Assembly: GCA_903928445.1 (NCBI GenBank)
Contig: CAIYRB010000194.1
Location: forward strand, 25,301-89,300
Origin: an uncultured Pseudomonadota bacterium
Lineage (GTDB): Bacteria > Bdellovibrionota_B > Oligoflexia > Oligoflexales > CAIYRB01
DNA: 64,000 nucleotides
Direction: 5' to 3'
Part shown: positions 2,990 to 21,506 of the stretch, piece after piece
Numbering within the stretch: the first letter of the stretch is position 1
How the letters are laid out: each line of letters begins with the position of its first letter
Notes under the pieces: generated by a model
The model's database searches: none
Told to the model about the DNA's origin: nothing
Seen by the model: only the letters and a program-made list of their open reading frames with translations
Program-made: the position numbers and the translations under genes

Positions 2990-3168
2990 TGGCACTCCGG
3001 ATCCCTTATAACGGCCGACTATAGCCGGCCGGCGCAAAAAAATCATCTGCCTATCTTCTCCCCTGGGCGAGAACCTGTTAATATTTAAGAGTTAGTTAAC
3101 CATCGGACGGTAAGGGCTTGGGTTAGCAGCCAGGGCCACCACGTTCCATAGGACAGGAGACACAAATC

Positions 3169-3477
3169 GTGGAAGGTACGCTCACCAAAGATGCTCTCAT
3201 CGAGATGATTCGCGACAAAGTCGGCTATCCTGTCAAAGAGGCAAAGGAAATCCTCGAGATCATCCTCGAAGAGATTAAGCTGAAGTTGGAGGAAGGCAAG
3301 GAGGTCAAGATCTCCGGCTTTGGCAAGTGGACGGTGAAGGAGAAACGTTCGCGCCCAGGTCGTAACCCACATACAGGCGATCGCATCGAAATCTCAGCGC
3401 GCCGCGTGGTGACGTTTCACCCGTCGGATAAGCTACGGGATTCCGTCAACCGCTCGTTTGAGAACGAAGCTCCTTAG
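3169..3477 (+). CDS. ihfA: Integration host factor alpha-like / HU-family DNA-binding protein
   Basis: GFGKWTVKEKRSRPGRNPHTGDRIEISARRVVTFHPSDKL matches the IHF-alpha arm (GFG..R.GRNP.TG..I.I.ARRVVTF.P). GTG start with AGGAG 9 nt upstream. Confidence 0.85.
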   Translation: MEGTLTKDALIEMIRDKVGYPVKEAKEILEIILEEIKLKLEEGKEVKISGFGKWTVKEKRSRPGRNPHTGDRIEISARRVVTFHPSDKLRDSVNRSFENEAP

Positions 3478-3515
3478 GCCCATAAGACGTGGCCGAGCGC
3501 CAGACGCTAGTGCAT

Positions 3516-3539
3516 CTTGCCGTGCCCTTCCGTGGCAAG
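3516..3539 (+). terminator. Weak stem-loop downstream of the ihfA-like gene
   Basis: cttgccgtg-cccttc-cgtggcaag forms a 9-bp stem that includes two G:U pairs, followed by a weak ATTT. No strong U-tract. Confidence 0.3.
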
Positions 3540-3560
3540 ACGATTTGACGGGGGCGTTAC

Positions 3561-3950
3561 ATGTGGGCATGGATCGGCCGCCTTTTGCAACTGTTGCCTC
3601 TACTAACTGCGATGTGTTGGAGCTGCTACCCAGCTTTCTTCACCGTCTGGGCTATTGCCACTGCCCCCGATCTGACTCTTGGCCAAATGGAGTGGCAAGA
3701 TCAAAATCAGAGCCTAGCGTTGCGCCGCAAGGTACAGCGGCATTTCCTCGCCCATTCGGTATACCTTCCGTTGGAAGATATCACCACGGCGCCTGGGCCC
3801 AACGCGGCTAGCGACGACCCTTCTTTACTCATGCAAAATGCCTGCGGTCAGGGTAGACTACTCGTCTGGCTCCCCTTTAAATTCAATGTGCCGATCGCCG
3901 GCGAAAAGGTCATCGAGTGGTGTTGGAAACCGCAGACGAACGACGTGTAA
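3561..3950 (+). CDS. Hypothetical membrane-anchored protein
   Basis: N-terminal hydrophobic segment (LLQLLPLLTAMCWSCYPAFFTVWAIA) followed by a soluble part. It looks more protein-like than the overlapping frame 3458..3811. No recognisable domain. Confidence 0.5.
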   Translation: MWAWIGRLLQLLPLLTAMCWSCYPAFFTVWAIATAPDLTLGQMEWQDQNQSLALRRKVQRHFLAHSVYLPLEDITTAPGPNAASDDPSLLMQNACGQGRLLVWLPFKFNVPIAGEKVIEWCWKPQTNDV

Positions 3951-4708
3951 ATGGTGCGGCACCTACGCTACGTCCCTCGCAGCAGGCGAGCGACAAACTC
4001 TGGCCGCTGCTCGCTCGACTGGAGGGCGAGGCCGTCAACATCGATGACCTTATGGAGTGGTTCATCGCTTGGACCCATCAAACCTTTGGTACCGCCGAGG
4101 TCGTTAATGGTTCTGAACGCTTTTACCTTGACCATGGCAAGGTCTTCCACGACGACAGCTTTTATAACGCTAGGACTGCTTACTTTTTTGATCACTTTAT
4201 CTTTGCACGCCGGGTCAGTAGCAACACCATCCAGGTCCGGACTGCTGAAGGCATCACGCCGCATGAGCTCCTTCTTGCCGAAGTCGCGGCACTTCAGGAG
4301 GCCATGCCTCAGCACTTATTTGAGCGGATGCAGCGCCTCAGCGATTTTCGTCATTCGCTATTTCAGATTCTAAAGGTGACCGACAAGTCCATGATGATTC
4401 AGGACTTGATCTCCCCCGGCAAGATCTCGGTGACAGCTAAACCACAAGAAACCTTCCGCGGCCTTGAGAAAAGAACGATTTTTCAGGCTTTCGTCTTTCC
4501 TTTTGACGATACCCATCAACTTAGTAGCGGCATCGTCATACATCCCCAAAAAGCCAATTGGCTGATCAAGCGATGGGTCAAACAGCAGCGACGGAAAGGC
4601 GATTTCACCGCGAAAGCGCTGCTGTCTCGCCTAGCTGCGGTGCAGATTCGTCACCTCCGTCATCGCCATGTGCACCCGAAATTGATCTACCAAGCGATTA
4701 AGGACTAG
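3917..4708 (+). CDS. Hypothetical protein (start uncertain)
   Basis: Long ORF with genome-typical codon bias directly upstream of pilB, no recognised motif. The GTG start at 3917 overlaps the previous ORF by 34 nt. An ATG at 4052 is an alternative start. Confidence 0.55.
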   Translation: MVLETADERRVNGAAPTLRPSQQASDKLWPLLARLEGEAVNIDDLMEWFIAWTHQTFGTAEVVNGSERFYLDHGKVFHDDSFYNARTAYFFDHFIFARRVSSNTIQVRTAEGITPHELLLAEVAALQEAMPQHLFERMQRLSDFRHSLFQILKVTDKSMMIQDLISPGKISVTAKPQETFRGLEKRTIFQAFVFPFDDTHQLSSGIVIHPQKANWLIKRWVKQQRRKGDFTAKALLSRLAAVQIRHLRHRHVHPKLIYQAIKD

Positions 4709-4773
4709 AAGACTCGTCCTCAACTTTTCTCGACTTACAGCCGAACAACGGGGGTAGGGAGAACTGGGGGCCT

Positions 4774-6495
4774 ATGTCCAATCCGTTAAAAACCTATCTC
4801 TTAAGCAATGGCTTGATCAGCGATGCTGACTACACGCGCGCTGAAGCCGTCAGCGCCAAAGAAAACGTCACCATCATGCACGCCATTGAGTCCATCCAGG
4901 TCGTCGCGGAAGATACGCTTCTCGACGCCTTTGCCAAATTCTACCGCCTACCGCGGACGAACTTGGCGGAAATGGACGTACCTAGAGCGATTATCGATTT
5001 GATTCCAAAGGATCTCGCCGTGAAGCACCGCGTGGTGCCCATCGATCGGGCTGGCAACAACATCATTGTCGCAATGGGTGATCCGCGTAACCTCGATGCC
5101 ATCAACGCCATTCGCTTCTCCGTCGGCTTCTTTCCCAAGCCGGTACTGGCCAGTGAACAGCGCATCACAGAAGCCCTACACAAGTATTATGGCAAGACGC
5201 TGGATATGGACTCCCTTGGCGACGGTATCGAGGTCCTGCCCAACAAAAGTCAAAAACAAGAGCGGCAAGACATTTCATCGGGTGATAAGGGTGACGGCCC
5301 GATCATAAAGCTGGTCAACCAAGTTCTCATCCAATGTTTACAACGTCGAGCCTCCGACATCCATATCGAGCCGTATGAATCATACCTCCGTATCCGCCTG
5401 CGAATAGACGGTGTTCTACACGAGATCGCACGCCCTCCCATCAGCATGAAGGCGGCGCTAATCTCACGCATTAAGATTATGGCGTCGCTCGACATTGCAG
5501 AAACCAGGCTGCCGCAAGACGGCGCCATCAATATCACCATCGGCAGCAAGCCCGTTGACTTCCGTGTCAGTTCTCTTCCGACAGTCTACGGCGAGAAAAC
5601 AGTGATGCGGATTTTGGATAAATCAGCCCTGCAAACCGACATGACCCAGTTGGGCTTTGATGTCGAGGAGCTTAAAAAGTTCAAAGATTCGATCCACCAA
5701 CCCTTTGGCATGGTCCTAGTCACTGGCCCAACAGGTTCGGGTAAAACAACGACACTCTACTCGGCGCTGGCCGAATTGAACCAAGAGTCTGACAATATCA
5801 TGACCGCCGAGGATCCAGTCGAATACAACCTCGAAGGCGTTAACCAAGTGCAAATGAAGTCTGACATCGGCCTGACCTTTGCTGCAGCACTGCGTTCCTT
5901 TCTCCGTCAAGATCCTGACATCATCATGGTCGGAGAGATCCGCGATTTGGAAACCGCAGAGATCGGCATCAAGGCCGCACTCACTGGCCACATGGTGCTT
6001 TCAACCCTGCATACCAACAGCGCACCCGACACCATTTCAAGGCTGCTCAACATGGGCGTGGAGAGCTTCAACCTGGTGTCCGCCTTAACCTGCGTTACGG
6101 CGCAGCGACTCGTGCGCAAGATCTGCGATAAATGCCGAATGGTCGACGAAAGCATCACGCCACAACTGATGATTGAACTGGGCATCCATCCGCAATATGC
6201 GAGCAGGGTTCAGGCCTTCAAAGGCGCTGGTTGCCATGCCTGCAGTGGCACTGGCAACAAGGGCCGGATCGCGGTGCATGAGGTCTTAAAATTAAGCGAC
6301 CCGGTACGCGAAGCTATCCTCGCCAATGCACCGGCTATGAAGATCAAGAAAATTGCGATGGCCAACGGCATGCGCTCGCTGCGCCAATCCGCACTCAACA
6401 AGATGGCCCAGGGCATCACCAATGCTCAGGAAGTCACTAAGACGACGGCTCCCGATGGCGATGACGAAAGCCGTCAAAAGGCAGGAGCTGCATGA
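4774..6495 (+). CDS. pilB: Type IV pilus assembly (extension) ATPase PilB / GspE family
   Basis: N-terminal T2SSE_N-like domain, Walker A GPTGSGKTTT, Walker B DPDIIMVGEIRD, His box GHMVLSTLHTN, tetracysteine motif CDKC...CHACSGTG. Confidence 0.92.
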   Translation: MSNPLKTYLLSNGLISDADYTRAEAVSAKENVTIMHAIESIQVVAEDTLLDAFAKFYRLPRTNLAEMDVPRAIIDLIPKDLAVKHRVVPIDRAGNNIIVAMGDPRNLDAINAIRFSVGFFPKPVLASEQRITEALHKYYGKTLDMDSLGDGIEVLPNKSQKQERQDISSGDKGDGPIIKLVNQVLIQCLQRRASDIHIEPYESYLRIRLRIDGVLHEIARPPISMKAALISRIKIMASLDIAETRLPQDGAINITIGSKPVDFRVSSLPTVYGEKTVMRILDKSALQTDMTQLGFDVEELKKFKDSIHQPFGMVLVTGPTGSGKTTTLYSALAELNQESDNIMTAEDPVEYNLEGVNQVQMKSDIGLTFAAALRSFLRQDPDIIMVGEIRDLETAEIGIKAALTGHMVLSTLHTNSAPDTISRLLNMGVESFNLVSALTCVTAQRLVRKICDKCRMVDESITPQLMIELGIHPQYASRVQAFKGAGCHACSGTGNKGRIAVHEVLKLSDPVREAILANAPAMKIKKIAMANGMRSLRQSALNKMAQGITNAQEVTKTTAPDGDDESRQKAGAA

Positions 6496-7625
6496 ACTAC
6501 ACCCTTCCCCAACTGCTTAAAGCGCTTCTTGATCAAGGCGGCAGTGACCTACATATCTCAACAGAGTCCCCACCAAGACTGCGCATCGACGGCAGCCTGT
6601 TGCCACTCGACCTGCCTCCGCTTACACCGCAAGATACCCGTCAATTATGCTATAGCGTCCTAACTGAAGAACAAAAGAAGGACTTCGAAACCCACAAGGA
6701 GATCGATCTCGCGTTTTCAGTGAAAAACATGGCCCGCTTTCGCGCCAACGTATTTCATCAGCGCGGGCAGGTCGCAGGAGTCTTTCGCGTCATCCCATTC
6801 AAACTGTATTCACTTGAAGAGCTGGCCCTTCCGCCGTCGATCAAGGATATCTGCAACACCAACAAAGGACTCGTCTTGGTAACAGGACCGACGGGGTCTG
6901 GTAAATCAACGACTCTAGCCGCGATGATCAACTACATCAACGAAACCCGGCGCGACCACATTATCACCATCGAAGATCCTGTTGAATTCATGCACACCCA
7001 TAAAAATTCGATGGTCAATCAACGTGAGGTCGGTAGCGACACGACGTCGTTTGCTCGAGCTCTAAAAAGCGTCCTTCGTGAGGACCCAGACGTCATCTTA
7101 GTCGGCGAGATGCGCGACCTAGAAACCATTAGCTTGGCTTTGACTGCAGCTGAGACCGGGCACCTGGTCTTTGCGACCCTTCATACCAATTCTTGCATCT
7201 CAACCCTGACACGTATCATCGACGTCTTCCCTCCGCACCAACAGGTACAAGTGCGCATTCAATTAGCCATGTCGGTAAGCGCGGTCATCGCGCAAACACT
7301 ACTACCAGCGGTCAATGGTGGGCGCGTCATGGCTATGGAAACGATGCTGCCGAACAAGGCCATTCGCAACCTCATTCGTGAGGATAAGCTGCACCAAATC
7401 TACTCCTCGATGCTGACTGGTCAAGACACTAGCGGCATGCAGACGATGAACCAGTCTCTTCTCAATCTGATTGATCGTCGCTTTGTCACTGCCGAACTCG
7501 CATTGGAACGGTCTCCTGAGCCGGAGGAGCTCCAAGATATGCTAGACAAAAGGGCGCTGCGCGCTAGCACCCCAGGCAAAGTCGGGCCGCAGCAGCGCGG
7601 ATACACACCAAAAAAGGGGGCGTAA
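6492..7625 (+). CDS. pilT: Twitching-motility (retraction) ATPase PilT
   Basis: Walker A GPTGSGKSTT, DPDVILVGEMRD, GHLVFATLHTN, PilT-signature AIRNLIREDKLHQI. ATGA overlap with pilB. Carries a charged C-terminal tail. Confidence 0.9.
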   Translation: MNYTLPQLLKALLDQGGSDLHISTESPPRLRIDGSLLPLDLPPLTPQDTRQLCYSVLTEEQKKDFETHKEIDLAFSVKNMARFRANVFHQRGQVAGVFRVIPFKLYSLEELALPPSIKDICNTNKGLVLVTGPTGSGKSTTLAAMINYINETRRDHIITIEDPVEFMHTHKNSMVNQREVGSDTTSFARALKSVLREDPDVILVGEMRDLETISLALTAAETGHLVFATLHTNSCISTLTRIIDVFPPHQQVQVRIQLAMSVSAVIAQTLLPAVNGGRVMAMETMLPNKAIRNLIREDKLHQIYSSMLTGQDTSGMQTMNQSLLNLIDRRFVTAELALERSPEPEELQDMLDKRALRASTPGKVGPQQRGYTPKKGA

Positions 7626-7634
7626 GCCAAAAAA

Positions 7635-8921
7635 ATGGCCGAATTTAAATACAAAGCCAAAGACTCCTCCGGCCGCACCAGATCCGGCAAGGTGTCCGCT
7701 CAATCTAAAGCCCAGGCCAGGGCACTGATCACTAGAATGCGCCTGAACGTACTGCAAATCACCACGACAAAGTTGGATAATAGCGGCGGCAAGAATAACG
7801 GCGATGACGGGACAACACCGATTCTAGGCAATATGATTGTTAAGGACAAAGATGGGAAGATCCAGCTCCAGCTGGGCGCCTCGGAGCCCAGTACCAAGGA
7901 TCTCATCGTCTTCACCAAGCAATTTGCGACGATGATCGGCAGCGGTGTGCCCTTGGTCCAAGCCATTGGCGTGCTTGCCGAGCAGCAGGTTGTACTCTCT
8001 TTTGGCCGAACCTTGAATAAGATTCGATTTTCTGTAGAAAACGGCGCCACGCTGAGTGAGAGCCTCGAAGCCTATCCAAAGATTTTCGATAGCCTCTATG
8101 TCTCACTTGTCCGAGCCGGAGAAGCTAGCGGCAATCTCGACACTATTTTATTAACCTTAACGGTCTATCTTGAAAAAGCTGCAAAGATTAAATCCCAGGT
8201 CAAGTCCGCGATGTTCTATCCGCTGATGGTCGTCGCCGTTGCCGTCATCGTGATCACCGTATTGCTGGTCTTCGTCGTACCAATCTTTGCGAAACAATAT
8301 TCTGATTCTGGCAAGCAACTGCCTTTTATGACTGCCATGGTCGTCAACGCCTCGACCTTCATCACGACGCACTTCCTAATAATACCTGGCGTTGTCTTCG
8401 GCACATTATTCGCATTCCGAGCCTATATTAGAACATCACAAGGGCGGGCCATCCTCGACGACAGTCTGCTTCGACTTCCCGGGTTTGGCGTACTATTTCG
8501 CAAACTCGCCGTCGGTCGATTCTGCAATACCATGTCCACCATGCTCACAGCCGGACTAAACATCTTAGAAGCCCTGACGATCTGTGCCGCCTCTTCGGGC
8601 AATATGACAATCGAGAAGTTCGTGCTCGGCGTTAGGGGCAAGATCGAGCAGGGCGCAAAATTTTCGGAAACCCTAGCTGAAGGTGGTTTGATTCCGTCCA
8701 TGGTGACCTCCATGGTTGCCGTTGGTGAAGCCACCGGAGCTCTCGATGATATGTTGGTAAAAGTGAGCCAGTTTTACGAAGATGAAGTTGATGTCGCCGT
8801 CAAGACCTTGCTGTCCATGATCGAACCGATCATGATTGTGGTCATCGGTGGAATCGTCGGCTTCATCGTCATCGCGATGTATCTGCCGATTTTCGACATG
8901 GCAAGCCTAGGCTCCGACTAA
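7635..8921 (+). CDS. pilC: Type IV pilus inner-membrane platform protein PilC (GspF family)
   Basis: Duplicated GspF-type domains with three TM segments, in the typical pilB-pilT-pilC order. The N-terminal region has a Gly/Asn/Asp-rich insert. Confidence 0.9.
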   Translation: MAEFKYKAKDSSGRTRSGKVSAQSKAQARALITRMRLNVLQITTTKLDNSGGKNNGDDGTTPILGNMIVKDKDGKIQLQLGASEPSTKDLIVFTKQFATMIGSGVPLVQAIGVLAEQQVVLSFGRTLNKIRFSVENGATLSESLEAYPKIFDSLYVSLVRAGEASGNLDTILLTLTVYLEKAAKIKSQVKSAMFYPLMVVAVAVIVITVLLVFVVPIFAKQYSDSGKQLPFMTAMVVNASTFITTHFLIIPGVVFGTLFAFRAYIRTSQGRAILDDSLLRLPGFGVLFRKLAVGRFCNTMSTMLTAGLNILEALTICAASSGNMTIEKFVLGVRGKIEQGAKFSETLAEGGLIPSMVTSMVAVGEATGALDDMLVKVSQFYEDEVDVAVKTLLSMIEPIMIVVIGGIVGFIVIAMYLPIFDMASLGSD

Positions 8922-10948: not shown

Positions 10949-12139
10949 ATGATCCCAGTCGTCGGAGCCGGCGTGCGCACGCTTGTAATGTCCCTTTTTT
11001 GGTCGTTCCTCTTGTTTGGAGGTATGGCGGCCTATTCTGAGCTGATTGCCAACAGCCGGTTTCTCGCACGTTCCGATGAGGTCTTGCGGCGAGCCGCTCG
11101 CTTAGAGCCCAGGGTCGAACCTTTAGTGGCCGAGCGGCTACAGGCCGAGGCGCGCCGCCGCGCGGCGCTGTACGAAGAGGAGATCGAACGCACTCACCTA
11201 GTCGATGGCATGGTCGTGAACTTAAGCGCCAAGGGCCATATGATGGACCAATGCGATAGCCTCCTATTCTCCTCGCTACGTTACGTGAGCTTGGTAAAGC
11301 TCGACCTTAAGACGCAGGCCAATAGCGCTTGGCAGGCCATCGAGCAATCACAAACAGATGGTCGCTGGCTACGCCACCCGCGCTGCTCGCGTAGTACATC
11401 ACGCGACATGATCCTAGGTGTCCTCATTGCTATGTCGCAAGCGCCAGAAGGGTTTGGTGAGCACCTTTCCACCCTGATGCGGTTAGTGGACAACAACGAC
11501 GGCTTTTTTGGCTCTGGCCCAATCTACGTCAGCTACCTATCTCCAGGCTTAGCCCGCTTTGTCGCGCTTTTGGCCGAGCGCCAAGGCTACCCGACGACCA
11601 AGCTGCCAGAAATCATCCGCGCCGGCTACTCGACAGCCGAACTAGAGGTTTTGGTAACCCAACGTGGGTTTGAGTCGCACTTGGGCGCCCTAACAGCATG
11701 GCTTGAGCTAGAACTCACGGCCAAGGTGCCTTTGGATCTGAGCGCATCGGGCACGATTTCAGAATTAGTTGACCGCATAGTCTCACCCTTTGCCGCTGAT
11801 TCCCTGAACAGCCAGCGCCTTGGCTGGATCACCGACCGACTAATTGCGGCCGATCCATCGAACCTGTTCTTTCGCTACCTCAGGCTTCGGGCGGCAGGCG
11901 CTTTGACAGTGACGGCTCGTATGCACATGCTTAATGAACTGCTAAACATGCCGCACTTTCCGTCCGACCGCCTGCCGATGAACTGCGACCGCTCGGCCGA
12001 CTACCTTTGGCAACGAGAAAATCGTGGCAAAAATCAACAGCCCTTAGGCTGCAATGAGGAATACAATGGCACCGATTTTCTCTGGATGGCGGCACTACTA
12101 CTGGAGAACCTGCCAGACGCTGGCTTGACCAACCACTAA
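10949..12139 (+). CDS. Hypothetical protein with N-terminal membrane anchor
   Basis: N-terminal hydrophobic helix (LVMSLFWSFLLFGGMAAY) and a largely helical remainder. No confident domain. Confidence 0.6.
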   Translation: MIPVVGAGVRTLVMSLFWSFLLFGGMAAYSELIANSRFLARSDEVLRRAARLEPRVEPLVAERLQAEARRRAALYEEEIERTHLVDGMVVNLSAKGHMMDQCDSLLFSSLRYVSLVKLDLKTQANSAWQAIEQSQTDGRWLRHPRCSRSTSRDMILGVLIAMSQAPEGFGEHLSTLMRLVDNNDGFFGSGPIYVSYLSPGLARFVALLAERQGYPTTKLPEIIRAGYSTAELEVLVTQRGFESHLGALTAWLELELTAKVPLDLSASGTISELVDRIVSPFAADSLNSQRLGWITDRLIAADPSNLFFRYLRLRAAGALTVTARMHMLNELLNMPHFPSDRLPMNCDRSADYLWQRENRGKNQQPLGCNEEYNGTDFLWMAALLLENLPDAGLTNH

Positions 12140-12182: not shown

Positions 12183-12887
12183 ATGCCTGTATCGACTAGG
12201 ACCAAAAGCCTCATGCGCCTCGCCGCTGGCGTTTTGATACTTGGACTTCTAATCATCAGCGCCAAGAACCTAACCATTCCCAGCTGCGGCGACATTCAAC
12301 TCCACCTCGAACGGTGGGGGTTATGGGCGCCCGTCGTTTTCGTACTAGCCTACGTGATCGCAACCATTGCATTTATTCCTGGCCTCGTGATTACCTTGGT
12401 CGGCGGCCTGGCGTTTGGACCTTGGCTTGGTACACTGCTCGTACTTATTGGCGCCAATATTGGGGCGCTACTGGCCTTTCTGGCATCGCGTTTTTTTGCC
12501 AGGGAGACCATCGAGGGCCTGCTGAGCAAACAAGCTTGGTTTGCCAAATTTAAAGCCGCGATGACCAGCGACGGTCTAAATTATGTTTTATTTATACGAC
12601 TAGTACCGATCTTTCCATTTAATGGTCTAAATTATGCTTGCGGCCTGGTCCCACTTAGGGTGAGAGACTATGTCATCGGATCCTTGATAGGTATGCTACC
12701 TGGAACATTTGCCTATGTTTACCTGGGTGCCGCTGGATGTAAATTGATCGATGCCGCACTCGGTGGTGCTCTACATCTTGGGGACTTACCGCCTGAGGTA
12801 AGAAATAAGCTTTTGATTGCCATCCTGTTGCTGGCTGTCTTGTCGCTGCTACCGTTAGTCATTAAGAAGCTTCGCGCCAAAGGTTAA
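12183..12887 (+). CDS. TVP38/TMEM64 (DedA-superfamily) membrane protein
   Basis: FIPGLVITLVGGLAFGPWLGTLLVLIGANIGALLAFLASRFFARE is typical of the family, with multiple TM segments. Confidence 0.8.
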   Translation: MPVSTRTKSLMRLAAGVLILGLLIISAKNLTIPSCGDIQLHLERWGLWAPVVFVLAYVIATIAFIPGLVITLVGGLAFGPWLGTLLVLIGANIGALLAFLASRFFARETIEGLLSKQAWFAKFKAAMTSDGLNYVLFIRLVPIFPFNGLNYACGLVPLRVRDYVIGSLIGMLPGTFAYVYLGAAGCKLIDAALGGALHLGDLPPEVRNKLLIAILLLAVLSLLPLVIKKLRAKG

Positions 12888-12907: not shown

Positions 12908-13786
12908 ATGATGACCATCACATCCTTGGACCTTGCCTTTGTCGAGCAAGCGGCCAAAATGCTCGAACATTCTAGTTTTCTTATGCGCGTCAGTACCTTT
13001 CTCGGACGACCCATCGAAGCGGCAACCGAGCGTTTACCGGACAAGGCCCGCAGCCTGATTACGCAGTCGGTGGATAGAGCGCTGAAGGGCTCGCTGCGTA
13101 TGGCGGTATCAACGCTAGAAGGTGGCAATCAGGAGTCTGTCGCGACTGCGAGTCAAAGCACGCCTACTGCCAAGAAATGGGTGCACACGGCTGCCGCAAT
13201 GAGCCTTGGCGCCATCAGCGGCGCCGCAGGTGGATGGTCTTTGGTGCTGGAATTACCTGTCACCACCACGGTGATGATGCGGTCGATGGCGGCCATGGCA
13301 CAGGCCGCCAATTTTAATCCGCGTGATCCTGAAATCGCCCTAGAAATTTTGTCGGTTTTTGCCTACGGCAGCCCAATGGTCAAACGCGGCGTGAATATCC
13401 CAGCAGAATCGACATTCTTCGCCGACCGCGCCGCACTGAAGATGCTAATCAAAGAGAGTGCTAGCTACGTCGCCGGGAAAACCGTTCGACAAGTGCTAAC
13501 CTCTCTCGACGTCGGTGGCGCTCCGAGGCTGGTTGAATTTATGAGCATCCTGTCTCGACGCCTGAACTTTGTTGTCAGTGAAAAGTTCTTAGCGCAGGGA
13601 CTACCGATCATCGGAGCGGCCGGGGGGGCCATGCTCAATGGACTGTTCAACGACTACTATAGCAATGTTGCATACTACGTCTTTGGCCTCCGCCGCCTAG
13701 AGCTGCTCTACGGCCCGGAGGCCATACGTCAGGCCTATGAAGATGCTGCGGCACGCTTAAAAATAGACTCTAACCCGATCGCCTAG
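12908..13786 (+). CDS. EcsC-family protein (tentative)
   Basis: The N-terminal pattern [33 protein letters not shown] and glycine-rich hydrophobic segments resemble EcsC-family proteins as I recall them. Strong RBS GGGAGGGAAGGG. Confidence 0.55.
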
Positions 13787-14325
13787 ACCTTACCGCCGTT
13801 TGGAAAGGTCCTTTTATACAGCTCGATAGACTCGTTGATGATCTCAAACGCACGATCTCGGTCGAAGAAGTCCTCGACCACCACCGCCTTCTGCTCGAGC
13901 ACTTTATAGTCCTCAAAGAAGCGCCGAACTTCTTTGAGGCGATGCGGCGGCAACTGCTTAATCGACTCGTAGTGATTGTACTCAGGATCATGTGCGTGCA
14001 CGGCGATGACTTTATCGTCCTCTTCCCCTTGATCAATCATCTTCATGACCCCGATGGGTTTCACCATCATAATCGACAGGGGGAAGATTGGCTCTTGCCC
14101 AAGGACTAAAACGTCCAAGGGATCGTGATCACCACAATAAGTCCGAGGGATAAATCCATAGTTGGCCGGGTAAACCACCGAGCTAAAAAGGATCCTGTCG
14201 ACATTGATAAGGCCGCTCTTTTTATCCAGCTCGTATTTAACTTTAGACCCTTTAGGCACTTCGATGACCACTGGGATCACATGTGGAAATTTATCGCCAA
14301 GGTCGACGTCATGCCATGGGTGCAT
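13783..14325 (-). CDS. ppa: Inorganic pyrophosphatase (family I)
   Basis: [44 protein letters not shown]. Confidence 0.95.
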
Positions 14326-14563
14326 TGGACTGCTCCTACTGTATTTATCAGTTATTGCTATGAAATTTTACTTTCGAGTGCATTTTGACCGGTATCCAGG
14401 GTGCCCAAATTAAGCGCTACAGCAGTCCTGGTCAACTCGATACCGGTCATTTAGCTGGGACCGAGCGCATAAAGGCCCGCTTGTAGGCAAAATGCTGGCT
14501 TTCGCCCCGGCCGTCCACTAATGTCCGGATCCAGCGTCACGTTGCATCTTAGGAGTCCTAAAT

Positions 14564-15541
14564 ATGGCCATCCATCCGAGTTTCTTCTCTTTAGTTATGG
14601 GCTTAGCCCTCGGCGCGACAGGCCCCGCAGCGGCAAAAAGCTACAAGCAAGGCCAGGACCAGTTCACGGTCGACTACACCTATACCGTTCCCCCCTTGGC
14701 GAAGGGCGATCAAGTAGAAGTCTGGCTACCACTTGCCAGCACCGATGCCTTTCAAACCGTGGGCGCCACGACCACCGCCCCTGGACTCGCGGTCGAATCG
14801 ACCGTCAACGCCAAATCTGGCAACCATTTCCTGCACGCTAAAGCCGATGCATCTGCAGCTGGAAAAAGCATCACCGTCGCCTACACCGTAACTCGGCGGG
14901 AAAAGGCGACCTACCCTGCTGCTGCTGAAGTCAATGACCCAGCCTACCTGCGCTCCGAACCGCTCATGCCGTTGAATGACCGTTTCAAAAAGCTCGCTCT
15001 TGAGATTACCCAAGGCAAAACATCGGCCGAAGAAAAAGGCCAGGCGATCTACAATTATGTACTCAAAGAAATGCGCTACGACAAATCCGGCAGCGGTTGG
15101 GGGCGCGGCGACGCGGTTTACGCTTGCGACTCGAAAACGGGCAATTGCACTGACTTCCACGCCCTATTCATCGTTCTCGCACGTTCGGTCGGCATTCCAG
15201 CCCGATTTGCCATCGGCTTTACCATCCCCAGCCAGGCCGACGTTGGGCCTATCGAGGGATATCACTGCTGGGCCGAGTTCGCCGCCAACGGTTCGTGGAT
15301 TCCTGTGGATATCTCCGAAGCGTCGAAGGACCCTACGACTAAGGACTATTACTTTGGCCATCACCCAGCAAATCGCTTCCAGCTCACAAAAGGCCAGCAA
15401 ATCGAACTAGTGCCAGCCTCAAGCCAAGGCCCCTTGACCTTTTTAGTGCACCCCTATGTTGAGATCAATGGCAAGGCGGTCAAAGGCGCCAAAGGGACCT
15501 ACGCTTTTAAACGACTGGCGGCACCTCAATCGAAGACCTAG
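14564..15541 (+). CDS. Secreted transglutaminase-like (cysteine protease fold) protein
   Basis: Signal peptide (MGLALGATGPAAA). Cys-His-Asp triad context: TGNCTDFHALF, GYHCWAEF, PVDISEA. Confidence 0.8.
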   Translation: MAIHPSFFSLVMGLALGATGPAAAKSYKQGQDQFTVDYTYTVPPLAKGDQVEVWLPLASTDAFQTVGATTTAPGLAVESTVNAKSGNHFLHAKADASAAGKSITVAYTVTRREKATYPAAAEVNDPAYLRSEPLMPLNDRFKKLALEITQGKTSAEEKGQAIYNYVLKEMRYDKSGSGWGRGDAVYACDSKTGNCTDFHALFIVLARSVGIPARFAIGFTIPSQADVGPIEGYHCWAEFAANGSWIPVDISEASKDPTTKDYYFGHHPANRFQLTKGQQIELVPASSQGPLTFLVHPYVEINGKAVKGAKGTYAFKRLAAPQSKT

Positions 15542-15549
15542 TACCAAAA

Positions 15550-16641
15550 GTGACCGAGCGCCTGTCTAGCACAGAGGTGATTGATGTCCTGTGCCGGTTG
15601 GGCCCACGACCGGCGTTGATCGATGTACGCTCGGAACTTGAGTTCGCGAAGGCAGCGGTGCCAGGTTTTGTTAATTTACCGATCCTCTTTCAGGCAGAAC
15701 GCCACGAAGTCGGCATTGCCTACAAACATGAAGGCCAAAAGGCCGCGATTGATCGCGGCACGGAGCTGGTGCTACCGGATCAAGGGCGACGAATCGAACT
15801 CTGGCGCCAGGAGATTGCCCGAGCTCCAGTGGCCGAAGCCATAGTTACTTGCTGGCGCGGCGGATTGCGTTCGGAGATCGCCTGCACATGGTTGCGAGCA
15901 GCGGGTCAGCAAGTCTACCAGGTTGAGGGAGGCTACAAAGGACTGCGCCACGTCCTGCTTGAGGTCACATCTTGCCCCCCACCCTTGGTGGTCATTACCG
16001 GTCTCACAGGCTCTGGGAAGACCCAGCTGTTGCAATCCCTAGGCGGAGGTGCGATTGATTTGGAGAAGGCCGCACGGCATCGCGGCAGTGCCTTCGGCGG
16101 CTGGATCAACCATTCGCAGCCGGCACAGGCGACCTTTGAAAACACCGTGGGCCTAGAGATGATTCGTCAAAATCGACAATTCGATGCGCTGATGTGCGAA
16201 GACGAAAGCCGGATGATCGGTGCAGTTTCACTGCCCGATTCATTCTTTGCCATGATGAGCAAGGCGCCTCGGGTCATCATTGACGAGCCACTTGCAGTTA
16301 GGACGGAACGTATTTTCCGCGACTACCTGGAGTACCCAGCGCATCAGGGAATCACTGCTGAGCAGATACGACAAAAAGCGGTCGAAGCACTCGATGCAGT
16401 GACTAGGCGACTAAGCAGCGACGCAGCGATGATCCGCACAATCATGTTGGAAGCCTTTGCCAAGGGGCTGAACTACTGCGACCACGAGCCATGGCTCGCC
16501 GCGATTCTGACCAGATACTATGATCGAGGCTATCACTACGCTGCAAGGCACACGAAAGACCTTCCGGTCCTGTTTCAAGGCGACCTCGCTAGCTGCACCG
16601 ACTGGTGCAAAGACTACGTAAAGAACCACAGAATCTCATGA
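15550..16641 (+). CDS. selU: tRNA 2-selenouridine synthase
   Basis: Rhodanese domain with active-site CWRGGLRS and P-loop GLTGSGKT. The N-terminal half aligns by eye with E. coli SelU (YbbB/MnmH). GTG start 8 nt after the upstream gene. Confidence 0.88.
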   Translation: MTERLSSTEVIDVLCRLGPRPALIDVRSELEFAKAAVPGFVNLPILFQAERHEVGIAYKHEGQKAAIDRGTELVLPDQGRRIELWRQEIARAPVAEAIVTCWRGGLRSEIACTWLRAAGQQVYQVEGGYKGLRHVLLEVTSCPPPLVVITGLTGSGKTQLLQSLGGGAIDLEKAARHRGSAFGGWINHSQPAQATFENTVGLEMIRQNRQFDALMCEDESRMIGAVSLPDSFFAMMSKAPRVIIDEPLAVRTERIFRDYLEYPAHQGITAEQIRQKAVEALDAVTRRLSSDAAMIRTIMLEAFAKGLNYCDHEPWLAAILTRYYDRGYHYAARHTKDLPVLFQGDLASCTDWCKDYVKNHRIS

Positions 16642-18866
16642 CAAACTCGCTGCAGACATTCAAACAGCGGATCGTTTTGGTCGGTGGGGGACATGCTCAC
16701 GCCGTCGCGCTACGGATGTTTGCCATGGCGCCGCTTCGCGGGGCAGACATCGTCCTCATTTCGGAGACTAGCCGCAGCGCCTACTCGGGGATGCTCCCTG
16801 GATTTGTCGAGGGGCGCCACTCGGAAGGCGAGATCTATATCGACCTCCGCCGCCTGGCTCTTGCCAGTGGCGCGAAATTCATCCAGGCCAAAGCCAACGG
16901 ACTCAATCTGGATACCAAACAGATCCATTTCGAGGACCACCCGGCACTCGCCTACGACGTACTCTCCCTCAACGTCGGCAGCACACCAGCGCTTGACGGT
17001 GTACCGGGTGCAGCGACCTGGGCCGTACCGGTTAAACCCATTGCGCCCTTTCTTGAACACTGGACCCAGCTAGTCGGGCGCGTCGCCGCAGGCGCTGTAG
17101 GGGAACGCATCCTCATTGTGGGCGGAGGAGCGGGAGGGGTTGAACTGGCATTGGCGATGCACGCTCGTCTGCAAGGTCGGGCCATCATTACGTTGGTTCA
17201 GGCTAGTGAACACCTGCTACCGACACAGGCTAAAAGCGCAGGAGCCACCCTCAAACGCCGCCTGCAAGCGCGCGGCATAGACCTCCGCCTTGGTTGGGAA
17301 ATCACCAGGGTCGAGCCGGGCCAAGCGTTTACCTCGGTCGGACCTACTTTAGCCTTTACCGCACTCTATTGGGTCACGAATGCAGCTGCACCGACTTGGC
17401 TCAAAGACACAGGACTGCAGCTCAATGCACGTGGCTTTATTCGGGTTGGACCAAGCCTTGAATGCCTAGGTCGCACCGGCGTCTTTGCCGCCGGTGACTG
17501 CGCAGCATTCGACACGGCAGCGTTGCCAAAGGCAGGAGTATTCGCAGTTCGTCAAGGACGTCCTTTGACACGAAACCTCAGGCGACTACTCGAAGGTAAA
17601 CCGCTGCTACCAAGCTCACCGCACCATGGCTACCTCGCAATCATTGGTACGGCAGACGGGAGCGCCGTCGCGACTAGAGGCCAATGGAGTCTGTCTGGCA
17701 GATGGATCCGAGGAGTTAAAGACTACATCGATCGTCGTTTCATCGACAGGTTTACCGCACTTCCAGTGTCACGGCCGCTGTCCATGGCAGCGGTCCCACC
17801 ACCTCCAACGCCAGCGATGCGGTGTCATGGTTGCGGCGCAAAGGTAAGCGGTGCGGTGCTTAGCCAGGTACTTGGCCAGATCGAACGGGATTATCCTGCA
17901 ACCGTGAGCGACAAAACTTTGACTTGGGGTCTTTCTGCCCGAGAAGACACTAGCTCATTCACGGTCCCAGCAAGCGCGCAGTTGCTCCAGTCTATCGACT
18001 ACTTTCCGGCGCTGGTGGATGATCCCTTCCTCGCCGGTCGTTTAGCTTGTATCCACGCCTTTAGCGATATCCTTGCTAAAGGCGCAAGGCCACACAGTGC
18101 TCACGTACTGGCTGTCTTGGAACAATCAACGCCACGGCTAACGGCCAATATCCTCTATCAAACCTTAGCAGGAATCGCCACCGAGCTTATTCGCTTCAAG
18201 GCACAGCTCTTAGGAGGGCACACCGCTGAAGGCTTGCAAGCATCCATCGGCCTGATGGTGAATGGCGTCGCGAAGTCACCCCCAATTCCCAAGACTGCCG
18301 GCCGACCCGGAGACGCCCTGGTCCTGACAAAGCCGCTAGGCACAGGCCTCATCTTCGCCGCTGCAACGCAAGGACGTTGCCCTAGTCCCCTGGTCGATGT
18401 GGCTCTGGCGAGTATGATGCAAACGCAATCCGAGCTACTGCCGCTGCTTGGCCACGCTGCAATTCATAGCGCTACGGACATCACGGGATTTGGCCTACTA
18501 GGACACCTGTGCGAAATGTTGCGCGATGAAGCCGTTGCCGCTGTCCTCACAGCAAGTGCTATACCCTGCTTGCCGGGGAGCCGGGCATTCGCTTTGGCCG
18601 GCATCGCCAGCAGTTTGTTTGCCGAAAATAGCCGCGTCCTCGATGCTGTGGAGTGGCCAAAGGACATGGATATGCGGCTAGCCGCATTGTGGTGCGACCC
18701 GCAAACTTGCGGCGGACTATTGCTCAGCGTCGACCCTACCCATGCAGCTAGCTTAGTGGCCAACATGGCCGCCCTCGGCTACCAAGGAGCCACGGTTATC
18801 GGCCATCTGAAACGGCGCGACACGGCTTCCGCCAAAATCACCTGGACAGATGCCGTCAACCACTAG
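16638..18866 (+). CDS. selD: Fusion protein: FAD/NAD(P)-dependent pyridine nucleotide-disulfide oxidoreductase (N-terminal) :: selenide, water dikinase SelD (C-terminal)
   Basis: The N-terminus has the Rossmann motif IVLVGGGHAHA and a second motif ILIVGGGAGGVELA. The C-terminal half starts at MRCHGCGAKVSGAVLSQVL, the SelD Gly-rich loop with Cys and Lys in the E. coli Cys17/Lys20 positions, and continues as a PurM-like fold. The start at ATG 16638 forms an ATGA overlap with selU. Confidence 0.88.
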   Translation: MTNSLQTFKQRIVLVGGGHAHAVALRMFAMAPLRGADIVLISETSRSAYSGMLPGFVEGRHSEGEIYIDLRRLALASGAKFIQAKANGLNLDTKQIHFEDHPALAYDVLSLNVGSTPALDGVPGAATWAVPVKPIAPFLEHWTQLVGRVAAGAVGERILIVGGGAGGVELALAMHARLQGRAIITLVQASEHLLPTQAKSAGATLKRRLQARGIDLRLGWEITRVEPGQAFTSVGPTLAFTALYWVTNAAAPTWLKDTGLQLNARGFIRVGPSLECLGRTGVFAAGDCAAFDTAALPKAGVFAVRQGRPLTRNLRRLLEGKPLLPSSPHHGYLAIIGTADGSAVATRGQWSLSGRWIRGVKDYIDRRFIDRFTALPVSRPLSMAAVPPPPTPAMRCHGCGAKVSGAVLSQVLGQIERDYPATVSDKTLTWGLSAREDTSSFTVPASAQLLQSIDYFPALVDDPFLAGRLACIHAFSDILAKGARPHSAHVLAVLEQSTPRLTANILYQTLAGIATELIRFKAQLLGGHTAEGLQASIGLMVNGVAKSPPIPKTAGRPGDALVLTKPLGTGLIFAAATQGRCPSPLVDVALASMMQTQSELLPLLGHAAIHSATDITGFGLLGHLCEMLRDEAVAAVLTASAIPCLPGSRAFALAGIASSLFAENSRVLDAVEWPKDMDMRLAALWCDPQTCGGLLLSVDPTHAASLVANMAALGYQGATVIGHLKRRDTASAKITWTDAVNH

Positions 18867-19301
18867 ACGCCACCCGCGGCCGCTGGCATCAGCTTGGCCA
18901 AATCAGGCAAAAATTCGATCTTTAAGCGCGTTATTACCTGCCACTACCGGTCCGAGTCGCCGCAAACCGCAATACTGCACGACGCGCCAGGCCTAAACTT
19001 TATCTCGATCTTACCGCTCCCCATATGGCCAACGACTCGGCCCAGGAGGAGTACTGTGGATTCGCGCCAAACTTTTTTCCGAACATGCTTTGTGCTGGGA
19101 CTCCCGGCATGGCTGCAAGTACCTTAGGGATCGCCATCAAAGAGGCGCCTATCCGCGCCAACACACCAGAACTTTTGGCATTACAAAGCGAGGACTTCGA
19201 CGAGTCGAATCAACCACAAAAGACGGCGAATGCCTTGGCCATCTTGGGCGCTGTATGCGTGCAAAAAGGTGCATGAGCTCAGTTGGCTTTTATAATTAGT
19301 C

Positions 19302-19319
19302 GCCGGGGTCAGCCCCGGC
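19302..19319. terminator. GC-rich stem-loop between convergent genes
   Basis: GCCGGGG-tcag-CCCCGGC forms a perfect 7-bp stem, 28 nt downstream of the glycosyltransferase stop on the minus strand. The flanks are AT-rich (ttttataatt) but there is no clean U-tract. Confidence 0.35.
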
Positions 19320-19346
19320 AACCGTCCAGCCTCGAGGCAACCTAGG

Positions 19347-20630
19347 TCACCCGCCAGTAGTGTCCTCGTGGGCCAAGGTCCTACTGCCCGGTCGACGAGA
19401 CGGCTGGGTAGCGGCACCACCAAGTCGAGCTTCGATCAGATCCGCAGCACCTTTTGAGCCTCCAGCAGCAATCACCTGCGCTTGCATGCCCAGCACGTTA
19501 GCCTTGATCACGGCGCTTGCAGCAACATCCTCAACTGCTTGAGCAATGAGCTCGCTGGTAAAACCAGTGCGCGGCAGATAGACGCCTAGCGCCATCGCAT
19601 CGACGCGACGGGCGGTAATCTCCTGCTCCTCGATCTGTGGAATCACCACCATAGGCACACCGTTTGCCAACGCCTCCATCGTAGAGTTCATTCCACCATG
19701 CGAAATAAACAGATCGGCAACTTCGAGCAGGGCGACCTGCGGGATATGCGCCTTGATGGTAAAGTTTGCCGGGATCGGCCCCAGGCTGGCGGGATCCAGT
19801 TTGGCGCCGATACTCATGACAACGCGCCATTTCGATCCGGAAAAAGCCCGAATACAATCGAGATAGAACTGCGTCCACTCATGATAAAGCGAGCCAAGCG
19901 AAATGATGAGGACTGGGCCTTCTCCTGGAGGCAGCAAGTCGATCGCCTCAGTCGGATCAACGCTTCGTACACAAGGTCCGACAAAATGGAAGCGTTCATC
20001 AAAAGTCTCACCATGCGGCTGAAATCCGCGTGGCATGAACACCAAGTTGTCTGCGGCTACGGTCGTGAATGCATCGAGCAACGATAGCGGGCCGCAGCCA
20101 GCCTTAGCACAGACGCCATCGACCATAGCCTGAGCCCGAGCAATCTCTTCTGGACTAGGGAAGTCGTATTTACCAAATGATTCGCGAATCAGGTCATAGT
20201 GCTCATTCGATGCATAAGTCGTAAAAAACTTGATGGTTTTAATCCCAAGTTGCTTTGCAACGACCATGGTTGCCATCGAGACGAAGTCGTAGATGATCAA
20301 ATCCGGAGGCCTGGCTGTCAGCTCTTGCACCAACACCGGCAAGGTCGTAGCGAACTCAGCCAAGACACGAACGGTGGTCGACAGGGCCGCAGGAGGAGGT
20401 ACGCCACGCTGTGCAGCGTCGGCCTGAGCAACAGCATGCTCGGCTGATGAATGTCCGATCGTACTGGGATAAGCGACAAAATGAGCACCTGTTCGGATGA
20501 TCTGCTCGGCGAACTCTGGGGTGCTGTAAAAATCAACCGAGTGACCGCGACGGGTCAATTCTTTGACGAATCCAAGGGTTGGATTGACGTGACCATGCAT
20601 ACCGATATTGATTAGAGCGATTCTGGACAT
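19347..20630 (-). CDS. GT-B fold glycosyltransferase, GT1 MGT/UDP-glycosyltransferase family
   Basis: N-terminal MHGHVNPTLGFVKELTRRGH and C-terminal donor-binding motif HGGMNSTMEALANGVPMVVIPQIEEQ, both typical of macrolide/UDP-glucosyltransferase-type enzymes. Confidence 0.85.
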   Translation of the reverse strand: MSRIALINIGMHGHVNPTLGFVKELTRRGHSVDFYSTPEFAEQIIRTGAHFVAYPSTIGHSSAEHAVAQADAAQRGVPPPAALSTTVRVLAEFATTLPVLVQELTARPPDLIIYDFVSMATMVVAKQLGIKTIKFFTTYASNEHYDLIRESFGKYDFPSPEEIARAQAMVDGVCAKAGCGPLSLLDAFTTVAADNLVFMPRGFQPHGETFDERFHFVGPCVRSVDPTEAIDLLPPGEGPVLIISLGSLYHEWTQFYLDCIRAFSGSKWRVVMSIGAKLDPASLGPIPANFTIKAHIPQVALLEVADLFISHGGMNSTMEALANGVPMVVIPQIEEQEITARRVDAMALGVYLPRTGFTSELIAQAVEDVAASAVIKANVLGMQAQVIAAGGSKGAADLIEARLGGAATQPSRRPGSRTLAHEDTTGG

Positions 20631-20834: not shown

Positions 20835-20919
20835 TGGTGCGATCGAGAGGACTTGAACCTCCACGCCTTGCGGCACCAGTCCCTCAAACTGGCGTGTCTA
20901 CCAATTTCACCACGATCGC
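20835..20919 (-). tRNA. leuU: tRNA-Leu (anticodon GAG), CCA encoded
   Basis: Manual fold: acceptor GCGATCG/CGATCGC, anticodon stem CCAGT/ACTGG with loop TTGAGGG, long variable arm, T-arm GGAGG-TTCAAGT-CCTCT, then A-CCA. 85 nt. Confidence 0.95.
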
Positions 20920-21003
20920 ATCTAACATCAAAAACAACTGGCCCGGCCCAGTACTAGTACAACCTGGCGGAAGAGGAGACCGCCCGTTGGTCACAGATCG
21001 AAC

Positions 21004-21336
21004 TTACTTGGCAGCTGGCACGGGGGTTGGAGCCGGTGCCGCGGGTGCCGGCGCTTGCTCGCCTGCCTGCTGCTTAAGCCTCTGTTTCAGTCCTATATCA
21101 CCGCCTTTGCCCTGAAGCACGGTGAGAGTGATTGAAGTCAACATAAAGATCCCCGCCGCACCGTAGGTCAGCTTGCCTAAGATCGACGTTGCTCCGGTCG
21201 CACCGAAGACTCCGGAACTATTACCACCGCCAAAGGCAGCGCCCACTCCACCCTCGTTGCCACCTTGAACCAACACCACCAGGATCATGAACAAAGCAAC
21301 GATGACATGGATGATTTCGATTAAAACTTCTGCCAT
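21004..21336 (-). CDS. secG: Preprotein translocase subunit SecG
   Basis: MAEVLIEIIHVIVALFMILVVLVQGGNEGG...GGGNSSGVFG is the typical SecG pattern, here with a Pro/Ala-rich C-terminal tail. Start trimmed to MAEVL. Confidence 0.9.
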   Translation of the reverse strand: MAEVLIEIIHVIVALFMILVVLVQGGNEGGVGAAFGGGNSSGVFGATGATSILGKLTYGAAGIFMLTSITLTVLQGKGGDIGLKQRLKQQAGEQAPAPAAPAPTPVPAAK

Positions 21337-21430
21337 CAACCTACCTGCTTTCCCTCGTAATGCATGAGCACTTGCTGCGAATATACCACGGCCGCTCAAA
21401 AGAGGATGGACCTTTTCCTGATGGAGTAAA

Positions 21431-21506
21431 TGGTGGCGCCTCCCAGAATCGAACTGGGGACACGAGGATTTTCAATCCTCTGCTCTACCGACTGAGCTAA
21501 AGCGCC
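21431..21506 (-). tRNA. tRNA-Phe (anticodon GAA), CCA encoded
   Basis: Manual fold: GGCGCTT TA GCTC AGTCGGTA GAGC A GAGGA TTGAAAA TCCTC GTGTC CCCAG TTCGATT CTGGG AGGCGCC A CCA. 76 nt. Confidence 0.95.

Follow-up and report, generated by a model that had tools for sequence, protein, structure and literature searches.

A stretch of 64,000 nucleotides from an uncultured Oligoflexales bacterium (contig CAIYRB010000194.1, positions 25,301 to 89,300; hereafter the window) contains three adjacent plus-strand genes, which we read as a selenium operon led by a gene with no known role in selenium metabolism. Gene 1 (14564-15541) encodes an exported transglutaminase-like (TG) protein, gene 2 (15550-16641) is selU/mnmH, and gene 3 (16638-18866) encodes a fusion of a flavoprotein resembling type II NADH dehydrogenases (NDH-2) to the selenophosphate synthetase SelD (Ndh-SelD). 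Taken as a whole, the locus is best explained as one selenium-utilization operon comprising SelU, Ndh-SelD, and an exported TG protein that acts upstream of SelD, an explanation that we hold with reasonable though far from full confidence. The pair of selU and Ndh-SelD is ordinary and already known; the novelty lies in the lead gene. Because this gene recurs in selenium operons elsewhere, its position in the window suggests that it probably belongs to the selenium module, and a functional tie between the TG gene and selenium seems to us the likelier state of affairs. The exported TG gene may thus be an unrecognized selenium-handling factor, recurrent in the selenium operons of several unrelated bacterial groups.

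The three genes are packed closely. Gene 1 (325 amino acids [aa]) runs from an ATG to a TAG at 15539-15541, and 8 nucleotides (nt) separate this stop from the GTG start of selU at 15550. The selU gene (363 aa) ends with a TGA at 16639-16641, which is overlapped by the ATG of gene 3 at 16638 to form an ATGA junction (CTCATGACAA). An initial annotation of this DNA had described three same-strand genes, the first two separated by 8 nt and the last two sharing an ATGA, and we find them as described. The same annotation gave gene 3 as a 743-aa fusion of a two-Rossmann oxidoreductase domain and a SelD domain; the domains stand, but the protein has 742 aa (743 codons counting the stop). An alternative in-frame GTG at 16605, upstream of the ATG, would lengthen the protein to 753 aa. 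The ATG is favored because it is the start called on identical and related contigs and because profile alignments of the ATG form begin at residue 12-14.

An AGGAG Shine-Dalgarno motif can be read from the sequence at 14551-14555 on the plus strand, 8 nt 5′ of the gene 1 ATG, and no Shine-Dalgarno-like motif was seen before the GTG at 15550 or before the ATG at 16638. A single motif at gene 1, with none downstream, fits a ribosome hand-over along one mRNA: ribosomes would load at gene 1 only and would be passed through the 8-nt gap and the ATGA overlap to selU and then to the fusion gene. From the spacing and the Shine-Dalgarno pattern we infer that the three genes are co-transcribed and translationally coupled. 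Promoter and terminator scans of positions 13700-19500 returned no more hits than did shuffled sequence, so for co-transcription the inference stays one from spacing.

Family membership and intact catalytic residues identify gene 2 as SelU, an enzyme predicted to use selenophosphate to convert tRNA 2-thiouridine-34 to 2-selenouridine. Its product scores 274.2 bits against the NCBIfam MnmH equivalog TIGR03167 (cutoff, 219.75) and lies just above the cutoff of NF008750 (243.1 versus 241), and the Pfam search gives a Rhodanese match, all of which agrees with the earlier assignment of this gene. The rhodanese active-site loop (C101-WRGGLRS; 15850-15873) and the Walker A motif (GLTGSGKT; 16000-16023) can both be read from the plus strand, and residues C101, R103, G104, G105, R107, S108, G151, T153, G154, K157, and T158 are invariant in 16 sequences from related loci. 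The selU gene overlaps the fusion gene in relatives whose fusions are 65, 49, and 45% identical to this one, and of 63 fusion loci in other species, about 30 have it at most 8 kb from the fusion gene. Profile searches had been suggested as a check on the initial annotation, and the SelD, SelU, and Pyr_redox_2 models all match their respective open reading frames (ORFs). We regard the SelU and Ndh-SelD identities of genes 2 and 3 as close to certain.

The C-terminal half of gene 3 (17823-18866) is, by family membership and retention of the catalytic residues, assigned as a Cys-type selenophosphate synthetase (selenide, water dikinase). Pfam finds Pyr_redox_2, Pyr_redox, AIRS, and AIRS_C in gene 3. 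The C-terminal half does not fail the SelD models: TIGR00476 (selD) matches fusion residues 394-702 at 239.7 bits against a cutoff of 125. The E. coli SelD structure 3U0O aligns to the fusion at 2e-35, and SelD is the best fold match of the C-terminal half of the AlphaFold2 (AF2) model. The mobile Gly-rich loop reads CHGCGAK (residues 396-402; 17823-17843) and its codons include no TGA. In the 3U0O alignment, C399 is the equivalent of E. coli Cys17 and K402 that of Lys20, while the Cys19 position is Ala; the alignment therefore confirms the earlier reading of this loop, including its use of Cys rather than selenocysteine (Sec). An extra Cys396, three residues before the Cys17 equivalent, turns the loop into a CxxC motif (C396-H-G-C399). 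Residues D437, D454, D477, and D614, the equivalents of E. coli Asp51, Asp68, Asp91, and Asp227, are all kept; we take these four to be metal- and ATP-binding residues of the E. coli enzyme.

The position of E. coli Asn87 is occupied in the fusion by His473 (18054-18056). Of more than 7,280 homologues, the 120 best show no variation at C396, C399, K402, D437, D454, H473, D477, or D614. Among Ndh-SelD fusion loci, 70 of 71 have His at the Asn87 position, as do all 120 best homologues, and the remaining locus has Asn. The CxxC motif and the His occur together in 67 of the 71 loci; in three more, the His is present and the loop was left unaligned. The sample also includes standalone SelDs, in which position 87 is Asn and the loop contains Cys or Sec. 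We rejected an assembly or frameshift artifact as the source of the fusion, since several independent contigs encode an identical protein and the architecture recurs in more than 7,000 homologues. The contigs with the identical protein come from lake metagenomes, and the protein is annotated as SelD at NCBI (PGAP).

Gene 1 is predicted from its sequence to encode an exported thiol enzyme with a protease/transamidase fold. It matches Pfam Transglut_core (PF01841) at 9.6e-30 (103.5 bits against a gathering threshold of 23), and no NCBIfam model matches the protein. A signal peptide is evident at residues 1-24 (14564-14635; MAIHPSFFSLVMGLALGATGPAAA then K) and is present in every TG homologue examined. 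A beta-sandwich forms the N-terminal part of the protein, before the Transglut_core domain. In the core, Cys195 (15146-15148), His234 (15263-15268 with the adjoining, likewise invariant Cys235), and Asp249 (15308-15310) form the invariant Cys-His-Asp triad of the family. Cys188 (15125-15127) is also invariant and lies in a disordered invariant loop; the GWGRGD loop is invariant and is left disordered in the AF2 model. That model has a predicted local distance difference test (pLDDT) score of 84.3, and its best match in the PDB is 3ISR, a putative Cys protease. The TG family comprises more than 5,400 matches, mostly of about 314 aa and many of them from soil. Two members, P0173 and P0184 (L174 8001-9524), are extended at the C terminus by a further domain of about 190 aa and have no selenium genes nearby. 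The idea that the TG protein itself is a selenoprotein, which would account for its location beside selA and selB, was discarded, as no in-frame stop was found at or near the conserved Cys codons of 16 homologues, all of which have Cys; the search patterns required Cys, so that Sec forms would not have been retrieved.

To see where TG homologues sit, we used two samples: 80 metagenome loci picked solely by similarity to the TG protein, and 63 fusion loci from other species that were screened for TG homologues. In the first sample, TG lies between selA and selB in 7 of 80 loci, or in 6 of the 46 loci with at least 1.2 kb on each flank, and the usual order is selD-selA-TG-selB with overlapping or abutting genes. 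In locus L121, for example, a gene at 2916-3944 is followed by selA at 3944-5287, TG at 5284-6225, and selB at 6225-8114. A marine Verrucomicrobiales metagenome-assembled genome (MAG) and a Pedosphaera MAG also have the order selD-selA-TG-selB; the TG proteins of the two are only about 55% identical. In the second sample, 2 of the 63 fusion loci have a TG homologue, as against an expectation, by our rough estimate, of far less than one locus with a chance neighbor among 63 random 16-kb SelD loci. One of the two (L048, a Pirellulaceae MAG) has the order selB, TG, selA, Ndh-SelD, with the last three genes joined by ATGA-type overlaps. The other (L032 582-8454, Acidiferrobacterales MAG DASWHF010000154) has Ndh-SelD, senB, senA, and cobQ and then TG on the opposite strand, about 4.7 kb from the ndhSelD-senB-senA selenoneine cluster. 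The partner genes in these comparison loci were called with NCBIfam models, with selA and selB above their cutoffs, SenA at 534 against 420, and SenB at 428 against 300.

Among closer relatives, the order TG-selU-fusion is kept at 90% identity. In locus L168, where the TG protein has 72% identity, a SelU-like start again comes 8 nt after the TG gene, and this selU orthologue, with its equal N-terminal length, backs the GTG start of selU in the window. Locus L170 has a rhodanese gene directly 5′ of a TG homologue with 53% identity. In all, the selenium-linked TG members show at least four gene orders, three partner pathways (selA/selB, selU, and senA/senB), and four taxonomic groups, and they fall into at least three separate lineages in a rough neighbor-joining tree.

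Some further features of these loci can be recorded here. In L032, the SelD/SenC role in the selenoneine cluster is filled by the Ndh-SelD fusion. The rhodanese of L170 (7329-7952) is a cytoplasmic protein of 207 aa with the loop CHFGVRS, and its gene follows NuoB/C/D-like and ferredoxin genes. HEAT-repeat proteins are encoded 5′ of selU in two fusion relatives (L005 3014-4849 and L007 1691-3565), and another (L120 1338-2435) lies between selD and selA in a selD-X-selA-TG-selB operon. Just 5′ of selD-selA-TG-selB in Pedosphaera sp. there is a 52-aa Rdx (SelW/SelT/SelH-like) call (L178 2469-2627 and L179 1754-1912), which probably represents a selenoprotein gene cut short at its UGA codon. In 18 soil-clade loci, the gene directly 5′ of TG (e.g., L089 5-595) encodes a secreted protein of about 165 aa with no Pfam match, and a membrane protein of the fatty acid hydroxylase family is often encoded just 3′ of TG.

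If the TG protein does serve selenium metabolism, its place would be an extracytoplasmic step before SelD, in which it would capture selenium or release it from an external or periplasmic compound for uptake. Such a step would use a cysteine-rich active site made of the Cys-His-Asp triad and the two further invariant Cys residues. We place it at the supply of selenium because SelD is common to the selA/selB, selU, and senA/senB contexts, and outside the cytoplasm because the protein is exported. A specific action in selenium acquisition is a tentative proposal, drawn from gene neighborhood only, and we would sooner bet against it than for it. We are just as guarded about its broader form, in which the exported family of about 314 aa would be a dedicated extracytoplasmic enzyme of selenium acquisition or processing, found in several phyla with all three SelD pathways, and would supply the missing first step of selenium assimilation.

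Several observations weigh against our explanation of the locus as a whole, and some of them also speak for the view that the module consists of selU and Ndh-SelD only. The TG protein would then be an unrelated envelope protein or secreted hydrolase, and its other selenium-linked cases would be a few inherited or transferred arrangements. In 73 of the 80 TG loci, including large soil clades, no selenium gene lies near TG, and the recurrent soil-clade neighbors (FA_hydroxylase, GT2, and a small secreted protein without a Pfam match) are unrelated to selenium and offer no functional clue. Fusion relatives at 49 and 45% identity have kept selU and lack TG, and two TG relatives at 47-52% identity have unrelated neighbors. 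The TG protein is exported while all of its partners are cytoplasmic; it has no obvious route by which to feed a cytoplasmic enzyme, and the operon contains no transporter gene. The Verrucomicrobiota and Planctomycetota cases could moreover share one ancestral arrangement of the PVC superphylum (Planctomycetota, Verrucomicrobiota, and Chlamydiota). Two other points bear on the overall explanation alone. The solved structure closest to gene 1 by both sequence and fold search, 3ISR, is a structural-genomics entry with no known function, and hence no function can be transferred from it; and the change from Asn87 to His throughout the fusion clade departs from E. coli SelD. An unrelated neighbor would nevertheless not be expected inside operons as tightly overlapping as that of L121, nor in an operon kept across two verrucomicrobial orders despite the low identity of the TG proteins. 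The variety of gene orders, partner pathways, and taxonomic groups also argues against it, as does the excess over the roughly estimated chance frequency in the SelD loci. On balance, we consider a module without TG to be unlikely, if still a serious contender.

The TG protein might instead be tied to selenium in a way other than supply, for example, by processing or anchoring an exported selenoprotein or by protecting the envelope against selenium toxicity. An exported protein with a protease or transamidase fold would suit such tasks, the majority of the linked TG cases are in selenocysteine operons, and a probable SelW-like (Rdx) selenoprotein gene stands just 5′ of the Pedosphaera operon. 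However, the partner in the window and in its relatives is selU, with no Sec machinery within the 64 kb, and one TG homologue lies near a selenoneine cluster; a selenoprotein-specific role would explain neither context. No in-frame TGA was seen in the TG homologues checked, and we find this alternative improbable. More remote still is the notion that gene 3 encodes no genuine selenophosphate synthetase but a SelD-like paralogue with another substrate, of the kind modeled by TIGR04369 (fusion_not_SelD). That model is the best full-length NCBIfam match of the fusion by E value (471 bits), and the fusion has His at the Asn87 position. Yet this score is far under the TIGR04369 cutoff of 700, whereas TIGR00476 passes its own, and Cys17, Lys20, and the four metal-binding Asp residues are retained. 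The fusion gene also overlaps selU, whose product requires selenophosphate, and fusions with CxxC plus His are found in selA/selB operons and in one senB/senA cluster as well. We give the paralogue reading very little credence.

The N-terminal half of the fusion (residues 1 to ∼372; 16638-17753) is an NDH-2-like FAD/NAD(P)H flavoprotein domain. It matches Pyr_redox_2 at 2.4e-25, and TIGR03169 (Nterm_to_SelD) matches residues 12-372 at 403.5 bits against a cutoff of 310. The two Rossmann motifs read GGGHAHA (16683-16703) and GGGAGG (17121-17138). By fold, the best matches are type II NADH dehydrogenases (Foldseek template-modeling scores of 0.81-0.90), followed by sulfide:quinone reductases, and the phmmer matches include YjlD and the NDH-2 of C. 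thermarum. Across the 120 best-scoring homologues (of more than 7,280), no Cys of this half is conserved. Chemistry of the sulfide:quinone reductase type was ruled out, given the missing Cys and a fold nearer to NDH-2. A flexible Pro/Ala-rich linker (residues ∼373-395; 17754-17822) with low pLDDT connects the two halves. The AF2 model of the whole fusion has a pLDDT of 88.7 and a predicted template-modeling score of 0.88; its confidence is low at the linker and the CxxC loop, with pLDDT values under 50 at residues 381-388 and of about 52 at residues 391-400.

This architecture suggests an internal relay, since a flavoprotein without a redox Cys of its own is flexibly tethered to a CxxC loop that is specific to the clade. 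NAD(P)H would reduce FAD, and FAD would then reduce a disulfide, selenylsulfide, or selenotrisulfide on Cys396/Cys399. Selenide would arise in place at the ATP site, and no external selenide donor or thiol reductant would be needed. Whether the reductase half does feed the CxxC loop we consider an even question on the architecture. It had been stated earlier that such fusions are long recognized and that the role of the reductase has not been demonstrated. This agrees with the section of Zhang et al. (2008; PMC2398784) on the fusion, where its function is called "not fully clear," and our literature searches turned up no biochemical work on the reductase half.

Elsewhere in the window, we looked for other users of selenium. 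A tRNA scan of the 64 kb detected only tRNA-Leu and tRNA-Phe and no tRNA-Sec, tblastn found no homologues of SelA, SelB, SenA, or SenB, and a Pfam sweep of about 50 window ORFs found no YedE- or YedF-like protein. The initial annotation had reported the lack of selA, selB, and tRNA-Sec in the window and had suggested a genome-wide scan for selA, selB, selC, sen, yedE, and yedF genes; the first point holds, and the scan, run on the 64-kb window, came back empty. Selenouridine as the visible selenium acceptor is therefore a statement valid for these 64 kb only, and the rest of the genome could contain selA and selB.

The housekeeping genes tRNA-Leu(GAG), secG, and tRNA-Phe(GAA) occupy 20835-21506 on the minus strand. 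The other window genes are of a housekeeping kind as well, among them pilB/pilT/pilC-like genes, ribF, ppx, ctaA/ctaB-like genes, and genes for an MqnC-like radical SAM protein and histidine ammonia-lyase. Three genes 5′ of TG, at 12183-12887, there is a gene for a DedA/VTT-domain membrane protein. In Ralstonia/Cupriavidus, the uptake of selenite has been linked to a DedA protein. Farther 5′, at 10949-12139, a 396-aa protein with a hydrophobic N terminus and no Pfam match is encoded. In L168, the gene for the 396-aa protein (2753-3943) comes directly before TG with a gap of 87 nt, and the DedA, EcsC, and ppa genes do not stand between the two. Because the DedA gene is absent from this interval, it is probably an insertion that lies outside the module in the window; the 396-aa protein may be an additional member of the unit.

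These results touch on two questions: how bacteria acquire selenium specifically at trace levels, and where the reduced selenium for SelD comes from. To our knowledge, the known candidates for selenium delivery (YedE, YedF, DUF3343, NifS-like lyases, and rhodaneses) are all cytoplasmic or membrane proteins. If the TG link is true, an extracellular step would be added to selenium assimilation, and abundant aquatic bacteria that use selenium would be recognizable by TG as a marker gene. If the link is false, the locus is an ordinary selU-selD operon. In the fusion, the CxxC pair as the only conserved Cys residues suggests that oxidized or thiol-bound selenium could be turned into selenophosphate in a self-contained process driven by NAD(P)H.

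Gene 3 has the same architecture as the Ndh-SelD fusions known from aquatic samples, an NDH-like N terminus joined to a Cys-type CxxC SelD. In the part of Zhang et al. that describes them, these fusions all have CxxC and make up about 40% of the Cys-SelDs in ocean metagenomes, and in the corresponding part of Mariotti et al. (2015; PMC4561486) Ndh-SelD is the commonest SelD fusion and is predicted to have retained SelD activity. To what these parts of the two papers report, we add the His at the Asn87 position in nearly all fusion loci and a flavoprotein half without conserved Cys. The SelD proteins of E. coli (3U0O) and Aquifex aeolicus (2YYE/2ZOD) share with gene 3 the PurM-like fold, Cys17, Lys20, and the four Asp residues. 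Gene 3 differs from both in its fused reductase, its extra Cys, and the replacement of Cys19 by Ala and of Asn87 by His. With NDH-2 enzymes, the fusion shares the two-Rossmann FAD/NAD(P)H fold, but the C terminus of its domain runs into a linker and SelD. Gene 2 has the rhodanese Cys loop and P-loop domain of SelU/MnmH/YbbB, and its overlap with the selD gene is likewise common: Kayrouz et al. (bioRxiv 10.1101/2022.04.13.486033) list five genes as the most frequent to overlap selD, and selU is one of them. Compared with the usual selD-selU operons, selU here precedes selD, and a TG-like gene precedes selU.

The closest known structure for gene 1 is 3ISR from Cytophaga hutchinsonii (among the PF01841 proteases), which shares the beta-sandwich and the papain-like Cys-His-Asp core at about 18% identity; the gene 1 family has in addition two further invariant Cys residues (Cys188 and Cys235) and the invariant GWGRGD loop. 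That the TG gene has no known role in selenium metabolism, as originally noted, proved correct, as no such role was found in the literature. The only links between transglutaminases and selenium that we found are a STRING entry and a figure legend, so that the association is close to unreported. In the STRING results of Lin et al. (2015; PMC5322559), a "transglutaminase-like enzyme" appears only as a low-ranked partner of YedF. The same study proposed YedE, YedF, DUF3343, and LysR_Se as selenium accessory candidates from their gene neighborhoods; the evidence for TG is of a like kind (placement by selD, selA, and selB), but TG belongs to a different family, is exported, and is not listed there. 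The legend, to Fig. 6 of Kim et al. (2016; PMC4807772), describes the Sec-insertion operon of Rhodopirellula sp. P2 as having an extra transglut_core gene and calls it unique, and it draws no functional inference from it. Like L048, this is a Transglut_core gene inside a Pirellulaceae selenium operon. Beyond Rhodopirellula sp. P2, TG recurs in Verrucomicrobiota, at a gammaproteobacterial sen locus, and before selU in the lineage of the window. Set against these known systems, the locus is a standard selenium operon with a recurrent, uncharacterized exported component.

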